From a virus, in the UHGV virus genome UHGV-0157394: a stretch of 26,072 nucleotides of DNA; one strand, 5' to 3'. Both the position numbers and the translations under genes were made by a program. Shown here piece after piece: positions 1 through 9,649 of this stretch. The first letter of the stretch is position 1. Each line of letters opens with the position of its first letter. Below the pieces are notes generated by a model that saw only the letters and a list, made by a program, of their open reading frames with translations, was not told the DNA's origin and ran no database searches.

Positions 1-113
1 CTGGTATCACTTAAAGGTATTAAAAACAACTTTTTGTCTTTTTACCTTCCCGTTTCGCTCAAGTTAGTATAAAAAAGCTGAACGTGAAACATTAAAAACC
101 AGTAATATCAATG

Positions 114-122
114 TGTTACAAT
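114..122 (+). promoter_or_regulatory. Candidate extended -10 promoter (TGtTACAAT), no convincing -35
   Basis: TGTTACAAT motif at 114-122 in AT-rich non-coding DNA; a strong terminator lies about 100 nt downstream on the same strand. Confidence 0.3.
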
Positions 123-224
123 ATCTTTAGTCTCAAAAATAGACTACATGATGCTACAAAACACAACATATCCAGTCACTATGAATCAACTACTTAGATA
201 GTATTAGTGACCTGAGACAGAGCA

Positions 225-264
225 TTAGCGCAAGGTGATTTTTGTCTTCTTGCGCTAATTTTTT
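225..264 (+). terminator. Intrinsic terminator: 10-bp perfect stem (TTAGCGCAAG / CTTGCGCTAA) followed by TTTTTT
   Basis: Perfect inverted repeat 225-234 and 249-258 followed by T6 at 259-264; the reverse strand lacks a U-tract, so it is plus-strand specific. Confidence 0.6.
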
Positions 265-403
265 GTTATCAAACATGTCGCACTCCAGAGAAGCACAAAG
301 CCTTGCAATCCAGTGCAAAGATTTGTGTGCCTCAGTTTTGTCTAAGTGTTCTACTGAAAACATAGTAAAATCGGCAACGGCTGGAAATCATTCAATACTC
401 GCA

Positions 404-670
404 CTATCGAAAGTTCGCCAGCCAGCCGCAGCGCGTTCTTGCATACGACGTGTCTGCGGTTTTATATAATCCCAGCCGGTCCAGTTTCCAGACAATCAAC
501 TCATCTCCACTTTTCATCACCGTAATTAATTCCTTTAACACAGGGCGATTAGCTGTTCTGCCACTGGCATATTCTTCATAAATTCGCTCACAGCCAGCTG
601 ACTCAAGTGCAAGACGTTGCAACTCTGTATCCTGATGATTTGTTGATACACGAACATACCCGTAAATCAT
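404..670 (-). pseudogene. pin: Truncated serine recombinase (Pin/Gin/Hin-family DNA invertase), N-terminal about 67 aa only
   Basis: MIYGYVRVSTNHQDTELQ...LIVWKLDRLG matches the invertase N-terminus with the catalytic-serine motif YVRVST; similarity stops near nt 470 and the ORF ends after 88 aa, versus about 185-190 aa for intact invertases. Confidence 0.8.
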
Positions 671-729
671 GAGTGCTTCTCCTGTTGTAAAAACAGGAGA
701 AGAGGCGAAATATCACCTGATTCAGAAAA

Positions 730-755
730 ATATTTGAAAGGTTGGTTTGGGAGAA
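730..755 (-). promoter_or_regulatory. Candidate hix/gix/pix-like crossover site (inner site next to pin)
   Basis: Left half TTCTCCCAAACC is near-identical to the half-site at 1830-1841; the two sites are in inverted orientation. Confidence 0.4.
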
Positions 756-1100
756 GCGGCAAAACGGGATGTGGGAACAGGTTCAGGTCAGATACCGGAT
801 ATGGGAGCATTCGCTTCTGGTTCGGGATGGTTCAGGCTACCAGGTGGATATATTGTTCAGTTTGGCACTTTTTCAGGAAACACGACTCGCTTTATCAGTG
901 GACACTTCCCTATACCATTCCCTAATCAGCCAATGGTTTCAGTCAGTGTTATGTCTGATGCCGTTCAGTCAGACCCGTCGAATCCTGCCCCGCAGGTTTT
1001 GTCTGTAAATTTTGAACATATCAGTAATTCAGCGTGGCGTGTGGCAACCAGTAATATCTCACAGCAATACATATTCAGTTATATTTCGAAAGGACGGTAG
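738..1100 (+). CDS. Silent alternative tail-fibre C-terminal (receptor-binding) segment with no start codon of its own
   Basis: Open frame begins right after a TGA at 735-737 with no ATG; contains WFRLPGG...QFG, paralogous to YFELPGG...QWG in the expressed fibre; followed in the same orientation by tfa. Confidence 0.6.
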   Translation, partial: KVGLGEAAKRDVGTGSGQIPDMGAFASGSGWFRLPGGYIVQFGTFSGNTTRFISGHFPIPFPNQPMVSVSVMSDAVQSDPSNPAPQVLSVNFEHISNSAWRVATSNISQQYIFSYISKGR

Positions 1101-1102
1101 AA

Positions 1103-1528
1103 ATGCAGAAATATATTTTCAGTGCCGATAAAAATGCGTTTTTCCCTGTGGAGCTTAAAGTCGCTTATCAGGAATCCGGCGAATGGCCCGATGATGTAAT
1201 CGAAATTGACGACACTGTTGCCGCCGAATTTATGAAGGAAGCACCAGAAGGAAAATACAGAGGTGTCATCGACGAAATGCCAGCATGGATTGATATTCCA
1301 CCACCAACTCATGAGGAACAAATTGCCGCAGGCGAATTGGAAAAGCAGCAATTGATTAATCAGGTCAACGAATACATAAACAGTAAGCAGTGGCCTGGCA
1401 AATCGGTGCTTGGACGCCTGAAAGATGATGAATTAACGCAGTACAATTTATGGCTGGATTATCTTGATGCGCTGGAAGCGGTGGACGTATCCAGCGCTCC
1501 AGATATTGTTTGGCCCTCCTCAACCTAA
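1103..1528 (+). CDS. tfa: Tail fibre assembly protein (Tfa/gpU-like chaperone)
   Basis: 141-aa ORF with the typical Tfa composition and conserved C-terminal region, positioned directly after a fibre C-terminal segment. Confidence 0.85.
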   Translation: MQKYIFSADKNAFFPVELKVAYQESGEWPDDVIEIDDTVAAEFMKEAPEGKYRGVIDEMPAWIDIPPPTHEEQIAAGELEKQQLINQVNEYINSKQWPGKSVLGRLKDDELTQYNLWLDYLDALEAVDVSSAPDIVWPSST

Positions 1529-1534
1529 ATAAAA

Positions 1535-1557
1535 AGCCGCTCTACGCGGCTTTCTCT
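1535..1557. terminator. Bidirectional intrinsic terminator between convergent tfa and tail-fibre genes
   Basis: AAAAAGCCGC-tctac-GCGGCTTTCTCTT: GC stem with A-run upstream and T-run downstream. Confidence 0.5.
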
Positions 1558-2132
1558 TACATCCCGAGTGCAAAATACGTATAGCTGTCAATATTGTTTG
1601 CCGTGCCGTTTCCATTCCATCCATAAAGGCTAAAGCCAGTTAAGGTATAATTAGCTGACGTCACATACCGACCGTCAGCTGTGATTTTATGCGGAAGAAC
1701 GATAAATGGGGTGACATTAAACGGTTTTTTAAAGCTTACCGTAGCATTGGTCGCCTGAACCGAGCCGTGCCCCCATTGCAGCAGCAATCCTCCCGGTAAT
1801 TCAAAGTACCCATCAGCCTCCAGTAACCGTTCTCCAAATCCAAGGTTTTCGAGAGCCGTTTTCACCGTGCCATCCGATTTGATATCGCCAAACGGATTCT
1901 TGCGGCTTAACAGCAGCGCACGAAGCGCGGTAAGCAGCTGGTCATGCCGCCCCTTCTCCAGGCTGGCACCGGATGCCTCCACCACGCTGCAGAGTTCTTC
2001 CTGCAACATATCAAAGTAGTCATCATCCAGATCGGTGGCAGGTGTGCCGGTCTGGGGGTTACCACGGGTAAAACCGTTCTTACCCGCGCCGAACTTATCC
2101 TTCTGCGCGGTTTTCGTGTCTATACGATGCAT
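1557..2132 (-). CDS. Tail fibre protein (constant N-terminal part plus currently expressed C-terminal tip)
   Basis: 191-aa ORF at the end of the baseplate gene series; its C-terminal half is paralogous to the plus-strand fragment at 738-1100. Confidence 0.8.
1830..1855 (+). promoter_or_regulatory. Candidate hix/gix/pix-like crossover site inside the tail-fibre gene
   Basis: TTCTCCAAATCCAAGGTTTTCGAGAG matches about 20 of 26 positions of hixL as I recall it (TTCTTGAAAACCAAGGTTTTTGATAA); lies at the constant/variable junction of the fibre. Confidence 0.5.
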
Positions 2133-2135
2133 GGA

Positions 2136-2720
2136 TTACTCCGGATATTTAAAAATTACGTAGGTATGCGACGGGCAGAGTTTGTTAAGCACACACTCGA
2201 CAACGGTGTCGCCCCAGATACGCAGCGCGGAATCACAGGGATCGCCACATGTCATCCAGGTGGTGTTTGTGGCGGCTGGCATGTTGACCTGCCAGTAATA
2301 CCGCCATTCCGGCACATTCACCGCGTCAGTACAGGCCGATGAGCAGGTGAACGTGCTTATGTCGTATCGCGTGATGGTAGCGTCTGGTCTGCCCAGGGCA
2401 GCAAGCTGTGCAAGATAAAAATTCTCGTTGATGCCGCCCGCCAGGTTAACCTTCGCATCCAGCCGTTGCTGACGCTGGCGAAGGGTCTGCGTCCCTGCCG
2501 GAATACATTCATCCGGCAGACCGCACAGACGCTCCCAGCGGTTTATCAGTTCAGTGGTGGTGCGCGGATCCAGCTCCCGCATCAGGGCATCCGCACGCTG
2601 ATGAACGCGGGTTAATGACGGTGCCACACCGGCAATCGCCGGATCGCTGGCTGACCACGCCGGACCGGGGGGCAACAGTGCCGACAACAGACGGATGTAA
2701 TCATCGTTTGTCACGTCCAT
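2136..2720 (-). CDS. Mu gp48-like tail/baseplate protein (DUF2313-type; e14 YmfQ-like)
   Basis: 194-aa ORF between baseplate J and tail fibre; family resemblance from memory. Confidence 0.75.
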
Positions 2721-3769
2721 GAAATCGTCCCCAGAACCGCCAGTTCATTTTTTGCAATGGAGATATTATCTGCCGGTGCAAGCAACTGATGGCTGTATTC
2801 CCCGTTCGCACCGGAAATCGCCTCACTGATACGCGATACCTTCAGTTCTCCCTGCGGATAACCATCACGCAGCAGGAACGAACGCAACTCCGCGGTGATG
2901 GCAGCCCGTATTTCCGGTGTATCCGGCGTCACACGGATATGAAAATCCACCGTATGCGCCACCGGCCTGAACACATACAAATCAGAGCCTGCCACCGGGG
3001 CCAGCGGCCCGATATGTTGTCTTGCCGCCGTTTCCGTTGATTCTTCCGGAATGGGATTAATCAGGTCACTACTGGCAATCATCACACCGACAGTCCCCGT
3101 TCCCATCCAGTGACGGTATGCCCATGCGCGGGTAATGCCGGGCACTTCTTTAGCCCAGACGACATAGTCCCCGTCAGCCCCGCCCTGCGGCGTCCAGTAA
3201 TACCGCTCAATGACGCGGGCGCGCCACGTTTCCAGATCTTCAGTATCAAATCCACCTGTCAGGGTATCTGCCACACCGGAAGACGGCAGACCATTCACCG
3301 GCGTGACCAGGATTAATGCCGTACCGTCGTCAGCGTTACCGACCGCGCCTGCAGTTGAACAGGCGATCGGCAGGCGCAGGACACCACCGGAGCTGGTTGC
3401 ATCGGCAGTTGCCGTGTACTGAACCAGGTCATCGCGCTGAATAACACTTCCGGCGGTCACCTTCAGGCCATCGCTGACACCTTCCCAGCGCATATACCCG
3501 CTGGCAGCCGTGGCCCCCTTGCGCGGACACCGTTTCATCGCAGCATGTCGCGCCAGCCAGAACTCATCGCACAGGTCAGGCAGCATGTTCATTGCCAGAT
3601 AATCGATGTACCCGTAAACCGTATGCAGCGCCGCCGCATACACCTTTGCCCGCACGTCTTCATCCATGCGCCGGAGCGTGTCGCTGACGTCCAGCCTGGC
3701 GAATAAATCGTTACGGAGCATACTGATATTTTCTGCCAGCGTCGGGCGCTGAAATTCACTGTCCGCCAT
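2711..3769 (-). CDS. Baseplate J-like protein (Mu gp47-like)
   Basis: 352-aa ORF in conserved Mu-like baseplate order. Confidence 0.85.
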
Positions 3770-4184
3770 GCGTTATCGCACTCCACAGATCATCAAAAGA
3801 AATCATTACCGGTCCGTCACGACGCCAGAGAGTGATACTGTTACCCAGTTCATTAATCCCGGTGCGGCGGATATCCAGATCAATACGGGACACCACGCCG
3901 TCATCAATCATCCATTGCAGGCATTCGCGGATATACCCCCTTACCGTCTGCACCAGCTGATTGGTCAGTTTGCTGCGCTGAAGCAGCCACAGTCGGGAGC
4001 CGTAACGGTCATTCTGTACCGCAGGCCAGGTATCCCCCCACCATCCCATCGGGACTTCGGCGTTGTCATCAGGCTCCGCCCGCCGCCAGGTAAACAGGGA
4101 AATCACCACGGCGCGGGTCAGCGGATCCAGTTGTGCGCTGGCGCAGGTGCGTTTACCGTTCACCGTCAGCCACAGTTCCATCAT
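3756..4184 (-). CDS. Mu gp46-like baseplate protein
   Basis: 142-aa ORF between baseplate V and J homologues. Confidence 0.75.
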   Translation of the reverse strand: MMELWLTVNGKRTCASAQLDPLTRAVVISLFTWRRAEPDDNAEVPMGWWGDTWPAVQNDRYGSRLWLLQRSKLTNQLVQTVRGYIRECLQWMIDDGVVSRIDLDIRRTGINELGNSITLWRRDGPVMISFDDLWSAITHGGQ

Positions 4185-4729
4185 GCCTCCATCACTTTAT
4201 CAGGTTTGTCGGTGTTACTGCCCTGACCGTTCTCTCTGTGACGATGCCCGTTATAGGCAAGCCGCATCGCTGACATGGTGGTGCCGGTGGAGTCGCACAG
4301 GTCTTTCACCTGTCCGGTCACTTCCAGGTCCATTTCAAAACGTGCCTTAGGCGCATTGCGAAACGTGATCGTTTTACCTGCACCGTCCACCACGATCCCC
4401 TCCCGGGCCAGCGTCACGGACTGCCCCTGATCGTCATAGACAGCCACCTCACCCGTCTGCAGCCCTTTCAGGCGGTAGCGCCGGTCCGACACCGTAACAA
4501 CCACCGCATGAGAACGGTCGCCATCCGGAAACAACACCACCGCTTCCGCACCGCTGTTTGCCCTTGCGGTAAAACCGTAGGGTTCAAGATGTTCAACCCC
4601 GGCTTTGGGTTCACCGGCAATCAGGGACACATCCACGGTCTGACATTTCGTGGCGGCACTGATGCTTTTCACCACGGCCCGCCCAATCAGGCCGAGGAGT
4701 TGTCGCTGCATGGCTTCAATCGTCCTCAT
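4181..4729 (-). CDS. Baseplate assembly protein V / spike (Mu gp45-like)
   Basis: 182-aa ORF, translationally coupled to flanking baseplate genes. Confidence 0.8.
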   Translation of the reverse strand: MRTIEAMQRQLLGLIGRAVVKSISAATKCQTVDVSLIAGEPKAGVEHLEPYGFTARANSGAEAVVLFPDGDRSHAVVVTVSDRRYRLKGLQTGEVAVYDDQGQSVTLAREGIVVDGAGKTITFRNAPKARFEMDLEVTGQVKDLCDSTGTTMSAMRLAYNGHRHRENGQGSNTDKPDKVMEA

Positions 4730-5808
4730 CAGAACGGGTCCTCCTGTACTCTGGCTTTTTTCTTTTTCCGCGCGCCGGGGGCTTCGGGTTCAGGCAGATA
4801 AGCATCAGGCGGGCCGACACGGATTTCCGTCAGGGTGCCGTTCTGGTCCTGAGTAAACGTGACTTCCGAAACAAGCAGTTCGGTATTGTCGAAACCACAG
4901 ACCGGATCAAAGACAATCACCCGCTGGTTGGGCTGCCACAGCGTACCGTTACCCTGTCGCCAGCCCTGCACCACATAGGTGGTTTCATCCGTCCGCGCCG
5001 CCCGTTGCCGGGCTTCAAAGTCAGCACGGGCAATACAGCCAGCCCCCGTAGCCTGCCCTGTCTGCCTGATATACATCGGACGGTAACGGGCAATAAATGC
5101 GTCCTCTGTGCGGGCCCGCAGCGCGGTGGTGGTGGCCTCACCGAAATCATCGTCGTTTCCGGCACGCTGCCCCGCCACCTGGTAAACAGAAAACCGCTCC
5201 CGGATACTCTTCTCCGTATCGCAGGAAAGGATGTTTTCCCCGAGTACCAGCGCAGTATGTGCCCGCGTTGAGCCAATACCGCCAATCACCAGCCTGCCGT
5301 GCGGGTCGTCGTAAGCCAGTGCCTGCTGCTGACCGAGTATTTTGTTGATTACCTCAATCACCGTTTCACCGTGATCAGGCTGGACATCAGGAATAACACC
5401 CGACGGCGCACCGTTGTTCACCACCTCAATGCCGAAAGGCGCAGCAAGCACCTGCGCAATCTGTACCAGCGATCGTCCGTTAAACTGTGTCGGTTCGGCT
5501 GCACAGTCAATCAGGTCAGCGGTCAGACTGCGTCCGGCAATACCGGTGCTGACCGAACGGGCATCGTAACGAACGGGCGTCGCCTCCACCCAGCCGGTGA
5601 TCACCAGCTCATCACCAATCAGCACCTCCACTTTTGAACCGTTTTTAATGCGCGGCTGAAGCGTGGTAATACCCTCATCTCCCGGCCACTGGCGGGTGAT
5701 CTCCACACTGAAATCCCGCGCCAGCCGTTCAATACCGGCACCGATGCGCACCGATGTCCAGCCATTCCACTCCCGGCCATTTACCCGTAGCGTGACATTG
5801 TCGTTCAT
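4729..5808 (-). CDS. Mu gpP-like tail/baseplate hub protein (gp44 family)
   Basis: 359-aa ORF downstream of the DNA-circulation protein, as in Mu. Confidence 0.85.
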   Translation of the reverse strand: MNDNVTLRVNGREWNGWTSVRIGAGIERLARDFSVEITRQWPGDEGITTLQPRIKNGSKVEVLIGDELVITGWVEATPVRYDARSVSTGIAGRSLTADLIDCAAEPTQFNGRSLVQIAQVLAAPFGIEVVNNGAPSGVIPDVQPDHGETVIEVINKILGQQQALAYDDPHGRLVIGGIGSTRAHTALVLGENILSCDTEKSIRERFSVYQVAGQRAGNDDDFGEATTTALRARTEDAFIARYRPMYIRQTGQATGAGCIARADFEARQRAARTDETTYVVQGWRQGNGTLWQPNQRVIVFDPVCGFDNTELLVSEVTFTQDQNGTLTEIRVGPPDAYLPEPEAPGARKKKKARVQEDPF

Positions 5809-7133
5809 TGCACTGGCACCTTCAGAGGGATCACCGGCACAAAGCCGGGATGCGTAATGGCATTACGCCGGATAATGTCCGCGTCACGCGCCGCGTTATC
5901 AAACCAGGTCGCCGCCAGCACCAGCGCGGGTAAAACCTCATCCGGTGTGCGCTGAATGATCCGTGCAGACTGTTCAAGGCGCGTGTTGATATCCGCATTC
6001 AGATCTGCTTTCACCCGGCGCAGCGCCAGAAACAGCGCATCACTGGTTGTACGGGACAACTCCTTATCAATTGCCGTATTCAGTGTGTCGCGAATGTCAG
6101 TCAGTTCTTCCCACGTCGGCAGGTCAACCGTGTTTTTCACCGCCGGTGCATTGTTCAGTGCCGGATGCGTGACGGAAGGCCAGCCAGTGCTCTGCGCAGG
6201 TGTTGTTGCCTGCCCCACTGCGGAATTCTGCATCACCGCGGAAGTTGTTGGCGCAGGCAATCGGGTGACGGCATACGCCGCTTCGCTGATTGCGGTCGTA
6301 CGAAGGGTGCTGGCAACCACGTTACGCTGCTGCGTCGCCGTGGCGGTGGTTTTACTGTCCGTTTTCCAGACGCCGCGCGGTTGCAGATCGCTGCCGAGGC
6401 TGACACCGGAAAGCGTTTTGATCATGGTGACCAGGTCGCTGGCGTTACCATAAAGGCGTTTCCCGGTACGCCACATTTTCTGCACCTGCTCAACGAAATT
6501 TTTGCCTGACGATGGCGGCGGCAGAAGTACCGAGATATCCCCCTGCAACAGCCTGGCGGCATCCGATACGGCAGAATCCACCACTTTCATCGCATCAGAA
6601 ACATACCCCAGCATTATGCTGGCATTACCGATAACGTCGTTCTGCACGAAATCCGCCACACCATCGATACTGAAACCGCTGAAGCTGTCACTGATGCAGT
6701 CATCCAGTGCAGAACAGGATGACATCAGCGTCTGCGCCGTCGCCGCACCTGATGTGGGGTAAGAGAGTTCTCCTGCTTCGACAAACTTCAGGTCAAAGCG
6801 GACAATACGCCCTTCATTTTTCGATGTGCTGACCCGAACTTCCCCGTCAACACAGACTTTCAGCTCACCATATGTCGGGTGGACCAGCGTGCCGGGACCG
6901 GGTTTATTCAGCGCGTCAATCAGGCGATCGCGCTGGTCAAAGCAGTCATCTCCCACCACATAAGCTGTGATGGACGGGCGGAAAGTGACTTTTCCCAGAT
7001 CTTCGGTATAGGGCTTGTCGCGGTTCGGGTATTCATGTGTTTCCACACGGCGACCGGTTCCCGCACTTTCTTCTTCAACCTTAAACGGCACACCTCGAAA
7101 TGACGCATCCTGAAGCCTGTCTTTCCACGTCAT
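5805..7133 (-). CDS. Phage DNA circulation protein (Mu gpN/gp43-like)
   Basis: About 442 aa; likely true start is the ATG at 7133 preceded by GGAG (the track begins at an upstream GTG at 7139); follows tape measure as in Mu. Confidence 0.85.
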   Translation of the reverse strand: MTWKDRLQDASFRGVPFKVEEESAGTGRRVETHEYPNRDKPYTEDLGKVTFRPSITAYVVGDDCFDQRDRLIDALNKPGPGTLVHPTYGELKVCVDGEVRVSTSKNEGRIVRFDLKFVEAGELSYPTSGAATAQTLMSSCSALDDCISDSFSGFSIDGVADFVQNDVIGNASIMLGYVSDAMKVVDSAVSDAARLLQGDISVLLPPPSSGKNFVEQVQKMWRTGKRLYGNASDLVTMIKTLSGVSLGSDLQPRGVWKTDSKTTATATQQRNVVASTLRTTAISEAAYAVTRLPAPTTSAVMQNSAVGQATTPAQSTGWPSVTHPALNNAPAVKNTVDLPTWEELTDIRDTLNTAIDKELSRTTSDALFLALRRVKADLNADINTRLEQSARIIQRTPDEVLPALVLAATWFDNAARDADIIRRNAITHPGFVPVIPLKVPVQ

Positions 7134-7143
7134 ATACACTCCG

Positions 7144-7174
7144 AAAATAAAAAAGCCACCTATTAGAAGGTGGC
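7144..7174 (-). terminator. Intrinsic terminator closing the low-GC moron cassette
   Basis: On the minus strand GCCACC-ttctaata-GGTGGC followed by TTTTTTATTTT. Confidence 0.7.
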
Positions 7175-7194
7175 CTTGTAATGAATTTTATTAA

Positions 7195-7725
7195 TTAGCG
7201 AGTCAGAAACAACGAATCTTTATACTTTTGCTGTTGTTCATTTAAATACTTAGCTGTTTCATCGCTGGCAAATGGAAATATTACCGTATTTTTAGGCATG
7301 GTAATTTCTTTTTTGTCCAGCGTCAGAGTAAACATAGGAACATACTGAGCAGAGTAACGCACCGCAGAAACGAGCTCTAGTTTAGACTCTTCAATAACAC
7401 TTAAATTATCCAGGCTAACTTTCTCTTCATCTTTTTTCTTTGACGCATTTAAAGTTTTTATTACTTTATTTAATTTCTCCTGAAAATCCTCCTTAAAGTT
7501 TTCAGGATTGCCGTCGACAACAAGAATCTGTTCACCCTGATTATCTGGAAAAATAATCTTTGCACTTATCAATTTATTTTCTTTATAAACATCACCAAGT
7601 TTTATGGCTCCTCCAGATAACTGAATAATATGTTCATCTTTAAAGGAGATGTTGCCAGAGATTATGAGAGATGAAAAAATAGCCGCTGCTCCAAGAATTA
7701 CACTTGCTGTGATATAGCCTTTCAT
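7195..7725 (-). CDS. Moron gene: exported or membrane-anchored protein of unknown function (176 aa, N-terminal signal peptide)
   Basis: ORF in a roughly 670-bp AT-rich island, far lower in GC than the flanking tail genes; N-terminus MKGYITASVILGAAAIFSSLIISG is signal-peptide-like with no lipobox; Lys/Glu-rich mature part; own promoter and terminator. Confidence 0.75.
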   Translation of the reverse strand: MKGYITASVILGAAAIFSSLIISGNISFKDEHIIQLSGGAIKLGDVYKENKLISAKIIFPDNQGEQILVVDGNPENFKEDFQEKLNKVIKTLNASKKKDEEKVSLDNLSVIEESKLELVSAVRYSAQYVPMFTLTLDKKEITMPKNTVIFPFASDETAKYLNEQQQKYKDSLFLTR

Positions 7726-7760
7726 TTTTCGCCTATTAACATTTTTCTAAATGTGCATTA

Positions 7761-7788
7761 ATTCTATCACTCTATTTATGACTTACAA
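7761..7788 (-). promoter_or_regulatory. Candidate sigma70 promoter of the moron gene (TTGTAA, 16 bp spacer, TGaTAGAAT extended -10)
   Basis: Motifs read on the minus strand about 35 nt upstream of the ATG at 7725. Confidence 0.4.
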
Positions 7789-7816
7789 CCAGCAATACAT
7801 GTGAGGGGAATCCTGG

Positions 7817-9649
7817 CTACCAAAATCGGGTATAGCCAACATCGTGATTTATATCAATGCCACTGGAGCGTGTTTCCGTAACCCGCATACCTGGTGGCAT
7901 ATTTATAAATGATACCTTGATCTCACCATCAACTTTTGGCGCGGTAGCTTTATTAATCATGAAGGGATTCGAGCCTGTGGCATCGGAGGCGTTGTTTGCC
8001 TGAGCCGGATCCACCGCCGGATAAGGAGTGTATCCCCGTGCCGGTATTCCCGTCCCATAAGCATCATAAGCACCCGCGCCCCACTGCGCAGAGTTAATGG
8101 CATCGACCGTGTCACCGGAACTGTCGGTAAACCACTCAATAATTGGCTTCAGCTTGTCCCACATATCCTGAAACCACTTAACAACCGGTCCCCAGTTATT
8201 GATTACCATCCCCAGCGGCGACCAGGCAAAAACCTTCTTCAGAAGTTCCCAGCCAGCCTCAAAATAAGGACCAATGGTTTCCCAGAGCTTCTTGAAATAA
8301 GGTCCGACAACATCCCAATTAGTGATAATTAATCCCGCAGCCAGGGCTATCGCCGTCGCAATCATTCCAATCGGCGTCATCGACATGATCCTGCTGACAA
8401 TACTGATGGCACCGCCAACGCCCATCAATCCCAGTTTCAGAATCGCAAGACCGGCAGCAAGCCCGACGACGCCGCGAATAACCCGGGGATTTTCATCCGC
8501 AAACTTCGTGAATTTCTCCCCCAACTCCCCCAGCCATTGCGTGATATTTTTGGCGTCACCAGAAAATGCGCCGCCAATAGCCGCAAGGCCGTTAGTTGCG
8601 GTCCCCGTCATTGCCTCCCACAGGTTGGACAGCGTACCAAGCTGGGCCTGAACACGTTTATTCAGGCTGGCCTGTTTATTCATCTTCTGCTGGATCTGAT
8701 CGTAACCATCCTTTCCTTTATCGATTAGTGCATTGACCACCTGAAGGGTTTCGGCATCATCACCAAATATTGCCTTAAGTACACCTGTTCGCTTAACGTC
8801 GGTCAGTTTTCGCAGCTTTGCCAGTTGCCTGAACATGTTATCAAGACCGCCAAAACTTCCTTTGCCGTCAGTAAAATCGAGCTGTACCCCGAGTCTCTGG
8901 CGGGCCATGACTTTATTGACGTCCCTGATTTTCTTAACGCTTAATCCGGACTGGATAACTTTTCGCAGGGCATTACCTGCCGACTCCCCGTTCATCCCCA
9001 TCTGATCCATCATGACGCTGATGGGGGCAAGGCTCTGTGCAGCCTGAAGACCGTCCTTGTTCACCATCTTCAGAACAGAACTGGTTTTAGTGAAGAAGGA
9101 CAACATGTTGGTATCGTCAACGCCCAGATAAAACGCCTTCTGGATAGTGTCGAACAGCCCCATCATGTCTTCTGACGCCGTTCCGGTAGCATCCTGCATC
9201 TTTGCAGCAAACTCAGCAGCCGCTTCCGGTGTTTTTTTCAGTTGTACCGCAAGATAAGCTGTCGCTTTACCCACACCACCCAGAATGTTTTCTGCCGGGA
9301 TCCCCTGACGCACCAGCATCTGCATCATGTTCTGGAAATCAGCCGTTGTACCGGGTAGCTGGTTACCCAGGCCAATAGCCAGTTTATTGATGTCCTGAAA
9401 GCTCTTTCCAACCTCGCCGTTCGCATCCATCATGGCGACTTTCAGCCCGGTGGCGGCGTTTTCCTGATCGGCATAAGATTTCAGGGAAAGCGTCAGACCC
9501 GCTGCCAGTCCGCCACCAAGCGCCAGCCCACCCTGTGACGCTTCTTCCGCCTGGCGTTTAAATCCCCGGATTTTCTTTTGCATTTTCGACAGCGCGGGAG
9601 AAAGCCTGTCGACACCGGTGATCAACGCCTTAAGCTCAAATTCCGCCAT
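7817..9649 (-). CDS. Tail tape measure protein
   Basis: 610-aa ORF after the chaperone pair; Ala/Gly-rich coiled regions, hydrophobic central segment, Trp-rich C-terminal region. Confidence 0.9.
   Translation of the reverse strand: MAEFELKALITGVDRLSPALSKMQKKIRGFKRQAEEASQGGLALGGGLAAGLTLSLKSYADQENAATGLKVAMMDANGEVGKSFQDINKLAIGLGNQLPGTTADFQNMMQMLVRQGIPAENILGGVGKATAYLAVQLKKTPEAAAEFAAKMQDATGTASEDMMGLFDTIQKAFYLGVDDTNMLSFFTKTSSVLKMVNKDGLQAAQSLAPISVMMDQMGMNGESAGNALRKVIQSGLSVKKIRDVNKVMARQRLGVQLDFTDGKGSFGGLDNMFRQLAKLRKLTDVKRTGVLKAIFGDDAETLQVVNALIDKGKDGYDQIQQKMNKQASLNKRVQAQLGTLSNLWEAMTGTATNGLAAIGGAFSGDAKNITQWLGELGEKFTKFADENPRVIRGVVGLAAGLAILKLGLMGVGGAISIVSRIMSMTPIGMIATAIALAAGLIITNWDVVGPYFKKLWETIGPYFEAGWELLKKVFAWSPLGMVINNWGPVVKWFQDMWDKLKPIIEWFTDSSGDTVDAINSAQWGAGAYDAYGTGIPARGYTPYPAVDPAQANNASDATGSNPFMINKATAPKVDGEIKVSFINMPPGMRVTETRSSGIDINHDVGYTRFW

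Follow-up and report, generated by a model that had tools for sequence, protein, structure and literature searches.

The locus at positions 404 to 2,132 of the window (the whole 26,072-nucleotide stretch of virus genome UHGV-0157394) is very probably a Pin-type switch for the tip of a short tail fibre that has lost its own invertase and become fixed in one of its two states, Y. It is an ordinary decayed member of the well-known e14/Pin family and not anything new. The frozen state is less secure than the identity of the locus as a switch, which nothing contradicts. The host element is an SfII/SfV-type prophage, with a Mu-like tail module, at att-lambda. Its end is marked by a lambda-type att core (TTAGTATAAAAAAGC, 64..78), flanked on the left by bacterial DNA and on the right by an HK106-like attP arm that reaches 468. 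The HK106 feature annotated as 'similar to lambda attP' aligns to this core, and HK106 is identical to the window from the core rightwards and different to its left.

Two 26-bp crossover sites lie in inverted orientation. The fibre-side site (1830-1855, plus strand) reads TTCTCCAAATCC-AA-GGTTTTCGAGAG, with its cut point at 1842/1843 and dyad symmetry at 18/26 positions. The pin-proximal site (730-755, minus strand) reads TTCTCCCAAACC-AA-CCTTTCAAATAT, with its cut point at 742/743 and a weak outer half-site, which by our own count agrees with the inner half-site consensus at 5 of 12 positions; this site type also adjoins intact pins of the 19-5 type. The two sites are identical to each other at 17 of 26 positions and have AA as the central dinucleotide in both, so that the window holds the inverted ~26-bp imperfect palindromes with identical 2-bp cores that define the Din family. 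The first-pass annotation had reported the pair at these positions and likened it to invertase sites, and alignment with the e14 pix, Mu gix and annotated P1 cix sites indicates homology. The fibre-side site matches the e14 site within stfP/ycfK at 24/26 positions, and the pin-proximal site matches the e14 site beside pinE at 20/26, the first 15 nt all agreeing. The published e14 inversion repeats TTGGTTTGGGAGAAGG and CCTTCTCCCAAACCAA (PMC12529663) are contained in the window sites. The 14-mer TTCTCCMAAWCCAA, common to both sites, has exactly two copies in the 26-kb window, inverted relative to each other, against 0.04 expected, and two or more matches were obtained in 0 of 100 shuffles.

The cut points delimit an invertible segment of 1,100 bp (743..1842), and homology with other genomes breaks off at 737/742 and 1846/1848/1854. 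Next to it, the constant N-terminal part of the fibre (1843..2132, minus strand, from the ORF list and the sequence) is translationally coupled to the upstream Mu gp48-like ymfQ gene and is 96-97% identical to the fibre N-terminus of SfV, SfI and SfIV. The 191-aa fibre ORF (1557-2132, minus strand) contains the fibre-side site immediately before the expressed tip Y (YFELPGG...QWG, gp53-like_C; 1557..1842, minus strand), which matches PF21882 over residues 112-190 (E=5e-9, 37.1 bits; gathering cut-off 24.9 bits). The silent tip W (WFRLPGG...QFG, gp53-like_C; 743..1100, plus strand) also scores above that cut-off (E=3e-8, 34.4 bits). It lacks its own start codon, its frame is open from 738, and the pin-proximal site lies at its 5' edge. 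The two tips belong to one Pfam family and are 32% identical over 50 aa (E=1e-4), and by this comparison are distant paralogues. The tail fibre assembly gene tfa (141 aa; 1103..1528, plus strand; PF02413, E=8e-33, 113.8 bits against a 22.1-bit gathering cut-off) starts 2 nt past the W-tip stop. It runs in the same direction as the silent tip and, in the present state, is antisense to the late operon and fibre ORF. The Pfam matches agree with the earlier placing of one site in the fibre gene ahead of its tip and the other at the edge of a start-less paralogous tip followed by tfa.

In the present orientation the fibre ORF runs directly into an intrinsic terminator found by a terminator scan (1531..1555, minus strand; fold of -15.5 kcal/mol, z = -5.0), which ends the fibre gene and late operon, and no tfa lies downstream of the Y tip, as had been noted before. 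The plus strand also forms a hairpin after tfa at 1531..1555. A sigma-70 promoter scan for expression of the silent tip and tfa in this orientation gave hits no more numerous than in shuffled sequence. In-silico inversion of 743..1842 produces an in-frame 215-aa fibre with the W tip and with tfa 2 nt past its stop, and GGA-GAA (Gly-Glu) is in frame at both sides of the junction. Inversion thus swaps in-frame fibre C-termini together with the chaperone: 191 aa with Y, or 215 aa with W plus tfa. The predicted W fusion to the same fibre N-terminus is contiguous in 19 complete E. coli genomes at 95-97.5% identity, so the alternative fusion proposed in the first-pass annotation exists in nature.

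The W-tfa-Y cassette occurs in other prophages, and there in both orientations. Strain 19-5, with an SfV-type prophage at dusA, has the identical cassette in the identical orientation beside an intact 187-aa pin, and shares with the window both the N-terminal part of the fibre and the 5' end of pin. Sequence identity to the cassettes of 19-5 and of the P2-like prophages LZYWN_4, H2 and APEC O18 is 95-98%; the invertases of these copies are intact, and their integration sites and phage backbones differ from those of the window. Among P2-like prophages with intact invertases, a 1,117-bp cassette is inverted at 98.0% identity between L015 and L008/L009, the flanks being colinear (98.7% and 95.6% identity) and the inner half-sites exchanged across the central AA. 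The fibres are 444 versus 468 aa long, which is the same 24-aa difference as between 191 and 215 aa in the window. A lack of inverted copies in relatives with an intact invertase, which had been named as evidence against a switch, is not what the genomes show. The informative flip pair among the P2-like prophages is LZYWN_4 versus H2; APEC O18 versus H2 was discarded as a pair since both are in one and the same state. A 1,833-bp cassette is flipped between strains 2824 and 1217KP (L022/L023), again with half-sites swapped across AA, and it uses the window's own site type with the weak outer half. The pin gene of 1217KP is disrupted by IS66. Both orientations with reciprocal core exchange are thus documented for the cassette family, and not for the window copy.

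The pin gene next to the segment is truncated. Its 88-aa ORF (404..670, minus strand) encodes invertase in codons 1-67 only (nt 670-470), and the last 21 codons are read-through into unrelated DNA. The Pfam Resolvase match covers residues 2-67, which correspond to profile positions 1-76 of 145, and tblastn alignments of Gin, PinE and the intact Pin from 19-5 extend over 670-470 only. Over residues 1-67, and only there, the product matches the intact 187-aa Pin encoded by strain 19-5 (19-5-type Pin: WP_000639149.1) at 98.5% identity, which makes the ORF a remnant of a Din-family invertase; identity to PinE over these residues is ~60%. All three comparisons end where the first-pass annotation had seen homology stop, after ~67 residues at nt 470. 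The remnant keeps the catalytic-serine motif YVRVST and lacks Resolvase profile positions 77-145 and the HTH, and the fragment is presumably inactive. An adjacent serine invertase of ~180-190 aa with resolvase domain and HTH is absent, and tblastn detected no second invertase within the 26-kb window. The deletion junction was read from the sequence common to the window, EC596 and phi458 and by direct string comparison. Clean excision from a 19-5-like sequence was rejected: the last ~15 pin nt and the 9-11 nt of the joint differ from 19-5, and the ancestor of the deletion was therefore a related allele.

The 5' part of pin that survives includes a candidate for the Fis-dependent cis enhancer of Din-family switches, a stretch (581..652, invertase coding nt 19-90) with homology to the recombinational enhancer annotated for Cin at cin nt 19-90 in the P1 record. 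This stretch is fully kept. It is 100% identical to the intact 19-5 pin and 69-75% identical to cin, gin and pinE, which are 76-79% identical among themselves. The nearest crossover site is 126 bp away, compared with 121 bp in e14 and Mu. Third-position conservation, used as a test of DNA constraint on the putative enhancer, was 0.42-0.50 versus 0.32-0.46 with small n and told nothing either way.

In the working version of the mechanism, a ~187-aa serine invertase encoded beside the segment would pair the two 26-bp sites, cut at the central AA and flip the 1.1-kb segment, thereby joining residues 1-97 of the fibre, its constant N-terminus, either to tip Y without a chaperone gene or to tip W plus tfa. 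In the window copy, a ~390-bp deletion took pin codons 68 to the end, and with them the catalytic domain beyond residue 67, helix E and the entire HTH DNA-binding domain. The window element would then no longer be able to flip itself, and would be fixed in the Y state.

The e14 P segment with PinE in E. coli K-12 (stfP-tfaP / tfaE-stfE) has nearly identical crossover sites (the 24/26 and 20/26 matches above), the same published inversion repeats and the same layout: ymfQ, fibre N-terminus, site, invertible tips and tfa, site, divergent pin. Like the window, e14 is lambdoid and has Mu-like baseplate genes. The e14 invertase is an intact 184-aa PinE, whereas that of the window is truncated and of a more distant subtype; the e14 segment is 1.8 kb with two tfa genes, while the 1.1-kb window segment encodes two gp53-like tips and a single tfa; and the pin-proximal outer half-site differs. 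The Mu G/Gin and P1 C/Cin systems are of the same mechanism class, with 26-bp sites around a 2-bp core and an unchanging fibre N-terminus that receives one or other C-terminus plus chaperone. Their enhancer lies in the invertase gene towards its 5' end, ~120 bp from the closest site, where the window has its putative counterpart. However, their segments are 3-4.2 kb with long S/S' fibre parts and U/U', their invertases are intact, and their core dinucleotides and half-site sequences differ from those of the window. The Shigella phages SfII, SfI, SfIV and SfV have a head-tail module 97-98% identical over ~17-18 kb, and this module takes in the fibre N-terminus and the 26-bp site. In SfV the tip is fixed and comes with tfa, invertase and second site are lacking, and gtr genes lie beside the fibre region; unlike SfV, the window has the cassette, the pin remnant and a lambda-type att.

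The truncation junction is present in 11 of 5,426 complete E. coli genomes and also in phage phi458; EC596 is one of the carriers. Exact junction scans gave one phi458-like contig in IMG/VR and one contig in metagenomes, the latter with the same prophage and orientation and 99.8% identical to window 1-6000; the scan of species-representative genomes gave no match. The truncation is thus a shared, inherited allele in several phage backbones, and not a private lesion. In every carrier examined the pin remnant is adjoined by the silent tip and tfa and none is flipped, although this sample is small and partly non-independent. A truncated pin with a flipped cassette was not found at 80% coverage or more in the 5,426 complete E. 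coli genomes, where the unflipped control search retrieved EC596 and eight genomes, most with an intact pin and 1217KP with its IS66-disrupted one. The hybrid site expected after flipping had no match in an exact-pattern scan of IMG/VR. Orientation counts in assemblies are a weak test, because assemblies with an intact 19-5-type pin and the W tip also show one orientation, 9 versus 0.

With two thirds of its own invertase gene gone, the switch has most likely stopped flipping unless the invertase of another prophage acts, and in practice the locus is probably frozen. The verdict of the first-pass annotation, locked unless an invertase acts in trans, is a fair one, with no flipped copy found beside the truncated allele and with cis requirements that seem intact. 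Inversion driven in trans is possible because the cis elements survive, namely both sites and the Cin-enhancer-homologous stretch. The switch may even not be frozen, although we consider it rather doubtful that it is an orphan, cis-only cassette usefully flipped by a Din-family invertase from elsewhere in the cell. The Gin, Cin, Pin and Hin invertases cross-complement, the AA cores of the two sites match, and the enhancer-homologous stretch has lost nothing and does not differ from the intact relative's. Matching pin or tip sequences are found in about half of E. coli genomes, and at least four phage backbones, a viable phage among them, carry this remnant with its end just beyond the enhancer region. 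Candidate enzymes are e14 PinE, PinR/PinQ of Rac/Qin, or a P2-like prophage invertase, which would use the kept sites and the putative enhancer. PinQ and PinR have been reported to invert the e14 P segment in trans, but a K-12 pinE deletion was reported to be locked despite chromosomal pinQ and pinR (PMC12529663). Heterologous invertases may also bind the pin-proximal site poorly, given the 5/12 agreement of its outer half-site with the inner consensus. No invertase is seen in the 26 kb, no flipped carrier of the truncated allele turned up, and the collections searched gave no evidence of trans-driven inversion of this cassette.

It is unlikely that in this lineage the sites serve mainly for module exchange rather than for phase variation, with phages trading tip and tfa cassettes through the 26-bp sites and through conserved fibre and pin sequence on either side. 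Stretches shared with many unrelated backbones do begin or end at 737/742 and 1846-1854, two different silent tips occur with the truncated pin allele, and SfV orf21 keeps the site without any invertase. The backbones sharing these breakpoints are of the SfV, P2, lambdoid Stf and DUF2612-type baseplate kinds. However, such exchange complements the switch reading and does not replace it, and the clean inversion with half-site swap in near-identical prophages shows that true inversion is the primary activity.

That the pin remnant is not mere debris but a selected, cis-only 'free-rider' switch, retaining its DNA signals (sites and putative enhancer) and with catalysis outsourced to co-resident prophage invertases, seems improbable. 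This reading rests on the allele ending just past the enhancer-homologous region and travelling with the site through at least four backbones. If true, whether the fibre switches would depend on which prophages the host contains. A chance inverted repeat beside a dead gene fragment that was never a switch has only the lack of a working invertase in the window in its favour, and is refuted by the 0.04 copies expected, the homology to proven crossover sites, the preserved reading frame and its natural fusion, and the flipped pairs documented elsewhere.

As a Pin-type switch without its invertase, this locus shows a host-range switch at one point of its decay, which matters little beyond annotation. 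SfV/SfII-type phages span the range from a full switch in strain 19-5 to no invertase in SfV. For typing or use of prophages like this one, the fibre probably stays in its Y-tip state, without a chaperone. If orphan cassettes are driven by the invertases of other prophages, fibre phase variation would depend on the whole prophage complement of the cell.

Two 26-bp crossover sites lie in inverted orientation with AA as the central dinucleotide of each, one on the fibre side (1830-1855, plus strand; TTCTCCAAATCC-AA-GGTTTTCGAGAG) and one proximal to pin (730-755, minus strand; TTCTCCCAAACC-AA-CCTTTCAAATAT). A 14-mer common to both occurs twice in the 26-kb window, only at the sites, against 0.04 occurrences expected from shuffles. 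The sites share 24/26 and 20/26 positions with the two P-segment sites of e14 in E. coli K-12, and can be aligned with Mu gixL/gixR and with P1 cixL as annotated in its record, bearing out the hix/gix resemblance noted in the first-pass annotation. The e14 inversion has been mapped by sequencing to repeats that are also contained in the window sites (PMC12529663), and the window sites are homologous to these experimentally defined crossover sites. The outer half of the pin-proximal site, ATATTTGAAAGG, is weaker than in the e14/P2 site type.

The fibre-side site lies within the expressed fibre ORF (1557-2132, minus strand; 191 aa), just before its tip; the C-terminal 80 residues of this ORF match PF21882 (gp53-like_C). 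The pin-proximal site is at the 5' edge of a silent second tip, a plus-strand frame open from 738 that lacks a start codon, has its own PF21882 domain and is followed by the tail-fibre assembly gene tfa (1103-1528, plus strand; PF02413). The expressed Y tip (YFELPGG...QWG) and the silent W tip (WFRLPGG...QFG) are distant paralogues of one family, with 32% identity over 50 aa. In the present orientation no tfa follows the fibre, which ends at an intrinsic terminator (1555-1531, minus strand), and tfa is antisense to it. When 743..1842 is inverted in silico, the second tip becomes an in-frame continuation of the constant fibre N-terminus, as had been predicted, and the present junction (22 residues, not shown) turns into ...LENLGLGEAAKRD...GWFRLPGG; the resulting fibre has 215 aa, and tfa begins 2 nt past its stop. 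A 758-nt query for this inverted junction, comprising the tfa 5' end, W tip, site, fibre N-terminus and ymfQ end, has a full-length, single-piece match in 19 complete genomes. The predicted alternative fusion therefore occurs in nature.

Both orientations are found in assemblies of relatives with intact invertases. Among P2-like prophages, LZYWN_4 and the H2/APEC O18 pair have colinear flanks (98.7% and 95.6%), but their 1,117-bp cassettes, bounded by the sites, point in opposite directions (98.0% identity) and the inner half-sites TTCTCCCAAACC and CTCTCCAAAACC have swapped partners across the central AA. Their fibres are 444 and 468 aa, and the 24-aa gap is the same as that computed for the window. 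This comparison provides direct comparative evidence for inversion. Since the window pin-proximal site has the weaker outer half, its site type was examined separately in strain 2824, which has an intact 19-5-type Pin, and 1217KP. Here the pin-side DNA is colinear (99.7%) and the two strains have a 1,833-bp W-tfa/tfa-X cassette in opposite orientations (96.8%), the breaks falling at the sites.

The truncated pin ORF (404-670, minus strand) matches the resolvase catalytic-domain profile at residues 2-67 only (profile positions 1-76 of 145), and tblastn with Gin, PinE and an intact relative covers only 670-470, in agreement with the earlier reading of about 67 retained residues and divergence at nt 470. 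The same queries found no second invertase in the window. In E. coli strain 19-5 an identically oriented copy of the cassette sits on the SfV-type tail module that the window also has, and the recombinase there is intact (187 aa), its first 186 nt matching the window pin exactly. Intact-gene genomes match both junction flanks with about 394 bp extra in between, and the lesion is therefore a deletion of pin codons 68 to the end. The DNA now fused to the remnant follows pin in 19-5 and adjoins attP in HK106. In 19-5, a terminator-like hairpin (CCGCAG...CTGCGG, window 424-470, -19.6 kcal/mol, followed by TTTTAT) is flanked on one side by a DinI-like gene and on the other by the 3' end of intact pin; in the window it lies exactly at the deletion junction. 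A perfect 11-bp stem (675-702, minus strand; -15.4 kcal/mol, z = -4.5) directly upstream of the pin ATG has the Shine-Dalgarno AGGAG within its 3' arm and is kept in intact-pin relatives; it could throttle invertase translation or block read-through from the invertible segment.

The deletion junction (GGGAT/TATATAAAA/CCGCAG) is identical in the genome EC596, the viable phage phi458 (L003 2350-2628), 11 of 5,426 complete E. coli genomes (H161-H171) and one IMG/VR contig (L018 1688-2077), and a metagenome contig with this junction is 99.8% identical to and colinear with window 1-6000. The truncation is thus an inherited allele. It has spread across several backbones and integration sites, att-lambda in the window and prfC, dusA and the pao region elsewhere, and PGAP annotates such remnants as partial recombinase pseudogenes (EC596 and the E. 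coli carriers L010-L014). Both phi458, which was propagated on MC1061, and the IMG/VR viral contig carry the allele with its crossover site, so the remnant is compatible with a viable phage. An IS1 separates the pin remnant from the tail-fibre gene in phi458, and in the Res13 strains (L014 2714-6828) the allele is flanked by IS2 and ISEc43.

Invertase loss is recurrent among relatives, by independent routes, and decay of the gene seems common in cassettes of this kind. Besides the deletion allele, an IS66 element lies within pin of 1217KP (L023 172-3185), and SW071618 (L017 2817-2939) has 123 bp of pin left beside a DUF262 gene. In three of four examined lambdoid carriers of the truncated allele (L010-L012, about 5445-8008), the Stf-like fibre gene beside the cassette is an annotated pseudogene without its C-terminus, and only L010 has a recognisable second site. 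The switches of these carriers look more decayed than that of the window.

From the Pfam match, the 19-5 comparison and the established domain layout of serine invertases, we infer that most of the catalytic domain is gone from the pin remnant, along with helix E and the DNA-binding domain, and that the window copy is unable to invert on its own. The cis requirements for inversion appear to be in place: both sites are intact with matched cores, and nothing is missing from the region that corresponds by homology to the annotated cin enhancer (coding nt 19-90), which is identical to the intact 19-5 gene, 69-75% identical to cin/gin/pinE (mutually 76-79%), and 126 bp from the nearest site, versus 121 bp in e14 and Mu. 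The switch is most likely fixed in its Y-tip, tfa-less state, which supports the first-pass view of a switch probably locked unless driven in trans.

It is established that invertases can act in trans on the switches of other prophages. Cross-complementation occurs among Gin, Cin, Pin and Hin. PinQ/PinR, encoded by Qin/Rac, flip the e14 P segment (PMC12529663), and Fin of Fels-2 acts on the Salmonella H segment (cited in PMC4272514). With its sites and enhancer-homologous stretch retained, the window copy might flip at a detectable rate in its host, driven in trans, but this is rather doubtful. The silent tip and tfa adjoin the remnant in all truncated-allele carriers examined (window, metagenome twin, EC596, L010-L014), and no flipped cassette beside the truncated allele was found in the 5,426 complete E. 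coli genomes or IMG/VR. This absence is weak evidence against flipping in trans, given that few carriers were sampled, part of them clonal, and that assemblies with intact 19-5-type pin beside the W tip are also all in the window orientation (9 vs 0); e14 too is mostly in one orientation in published data (PMC12529663). Deletion of pinE reportedly locks the P segment although chromosomal pinQ/pinR are present (PMC12529663), which would fit a cis element within pin, though this is our reading and not a claim of those authors. It is unlikely that the enhancer-bearing remnant has been kept because co-resident invertases drive orphan cassettes.

The Shigella serotype-converting phages SfII, SfI, SfIV and SfV, whose tail module is Mu-like, match the window at 97-98% identity from 1843 to about 19,700. 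At the left end, a lambda-type att core (TTAGTATAAAAAAGC, 64-78) within the prophage/chromosome junction (1-468) has bacterial DNA to its left, presumably the bio-side arm of E. coli att-lambda, and to its right an arm 94% identical to the HK106 attP arm. An SfV-type phage thus has a lambda/HK106-type attachment module here. Beside a T-run in the attP arm, a strong hairpin (221-259, minus strand; -16.4 kcal/mol, z = -5.3) is presumably the counterpart of lambda's sib/tI element for retroregulation of int. Homology with unrelated backbones starts and stops at the crossover sites, which fits the long-standing view that such sites double as module-exchange joints.

Unlike the window, SfV has a fixed tip and tfa followed by gtr genes, with no invertase and no second site. 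Like the window fibre, its orf21 (L021, about 3501-3530) keeps the full 26-bp site sequence, and window-SfV homology continues through the site to nt 1827, then ends; the orf21 site is a fossil, left either by an earlier switch or by the exchange of cassettes. By mechanism and descent, the window locus is an inversion system of the Din family (Gin/Cin/Pin/Hin), closest to e14 Pin/P. One defining feature, an intact invertase, is missing through secondary deletion, and the locus is therefore classed as a decayed member and not as a new kind. What sets it apart is minor: the 1.1-kb cassette is asymmetric, pairing two gp53-like tips with a single tfa; its Pin belongs to a divergent subtype, and the outer half of the pin-proximal site is weak; and the truncation allele is common to several phages. 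To a specialist, the locus would be no surprise, an ordinary, partly decayed Pin-type tail-fibre switch.
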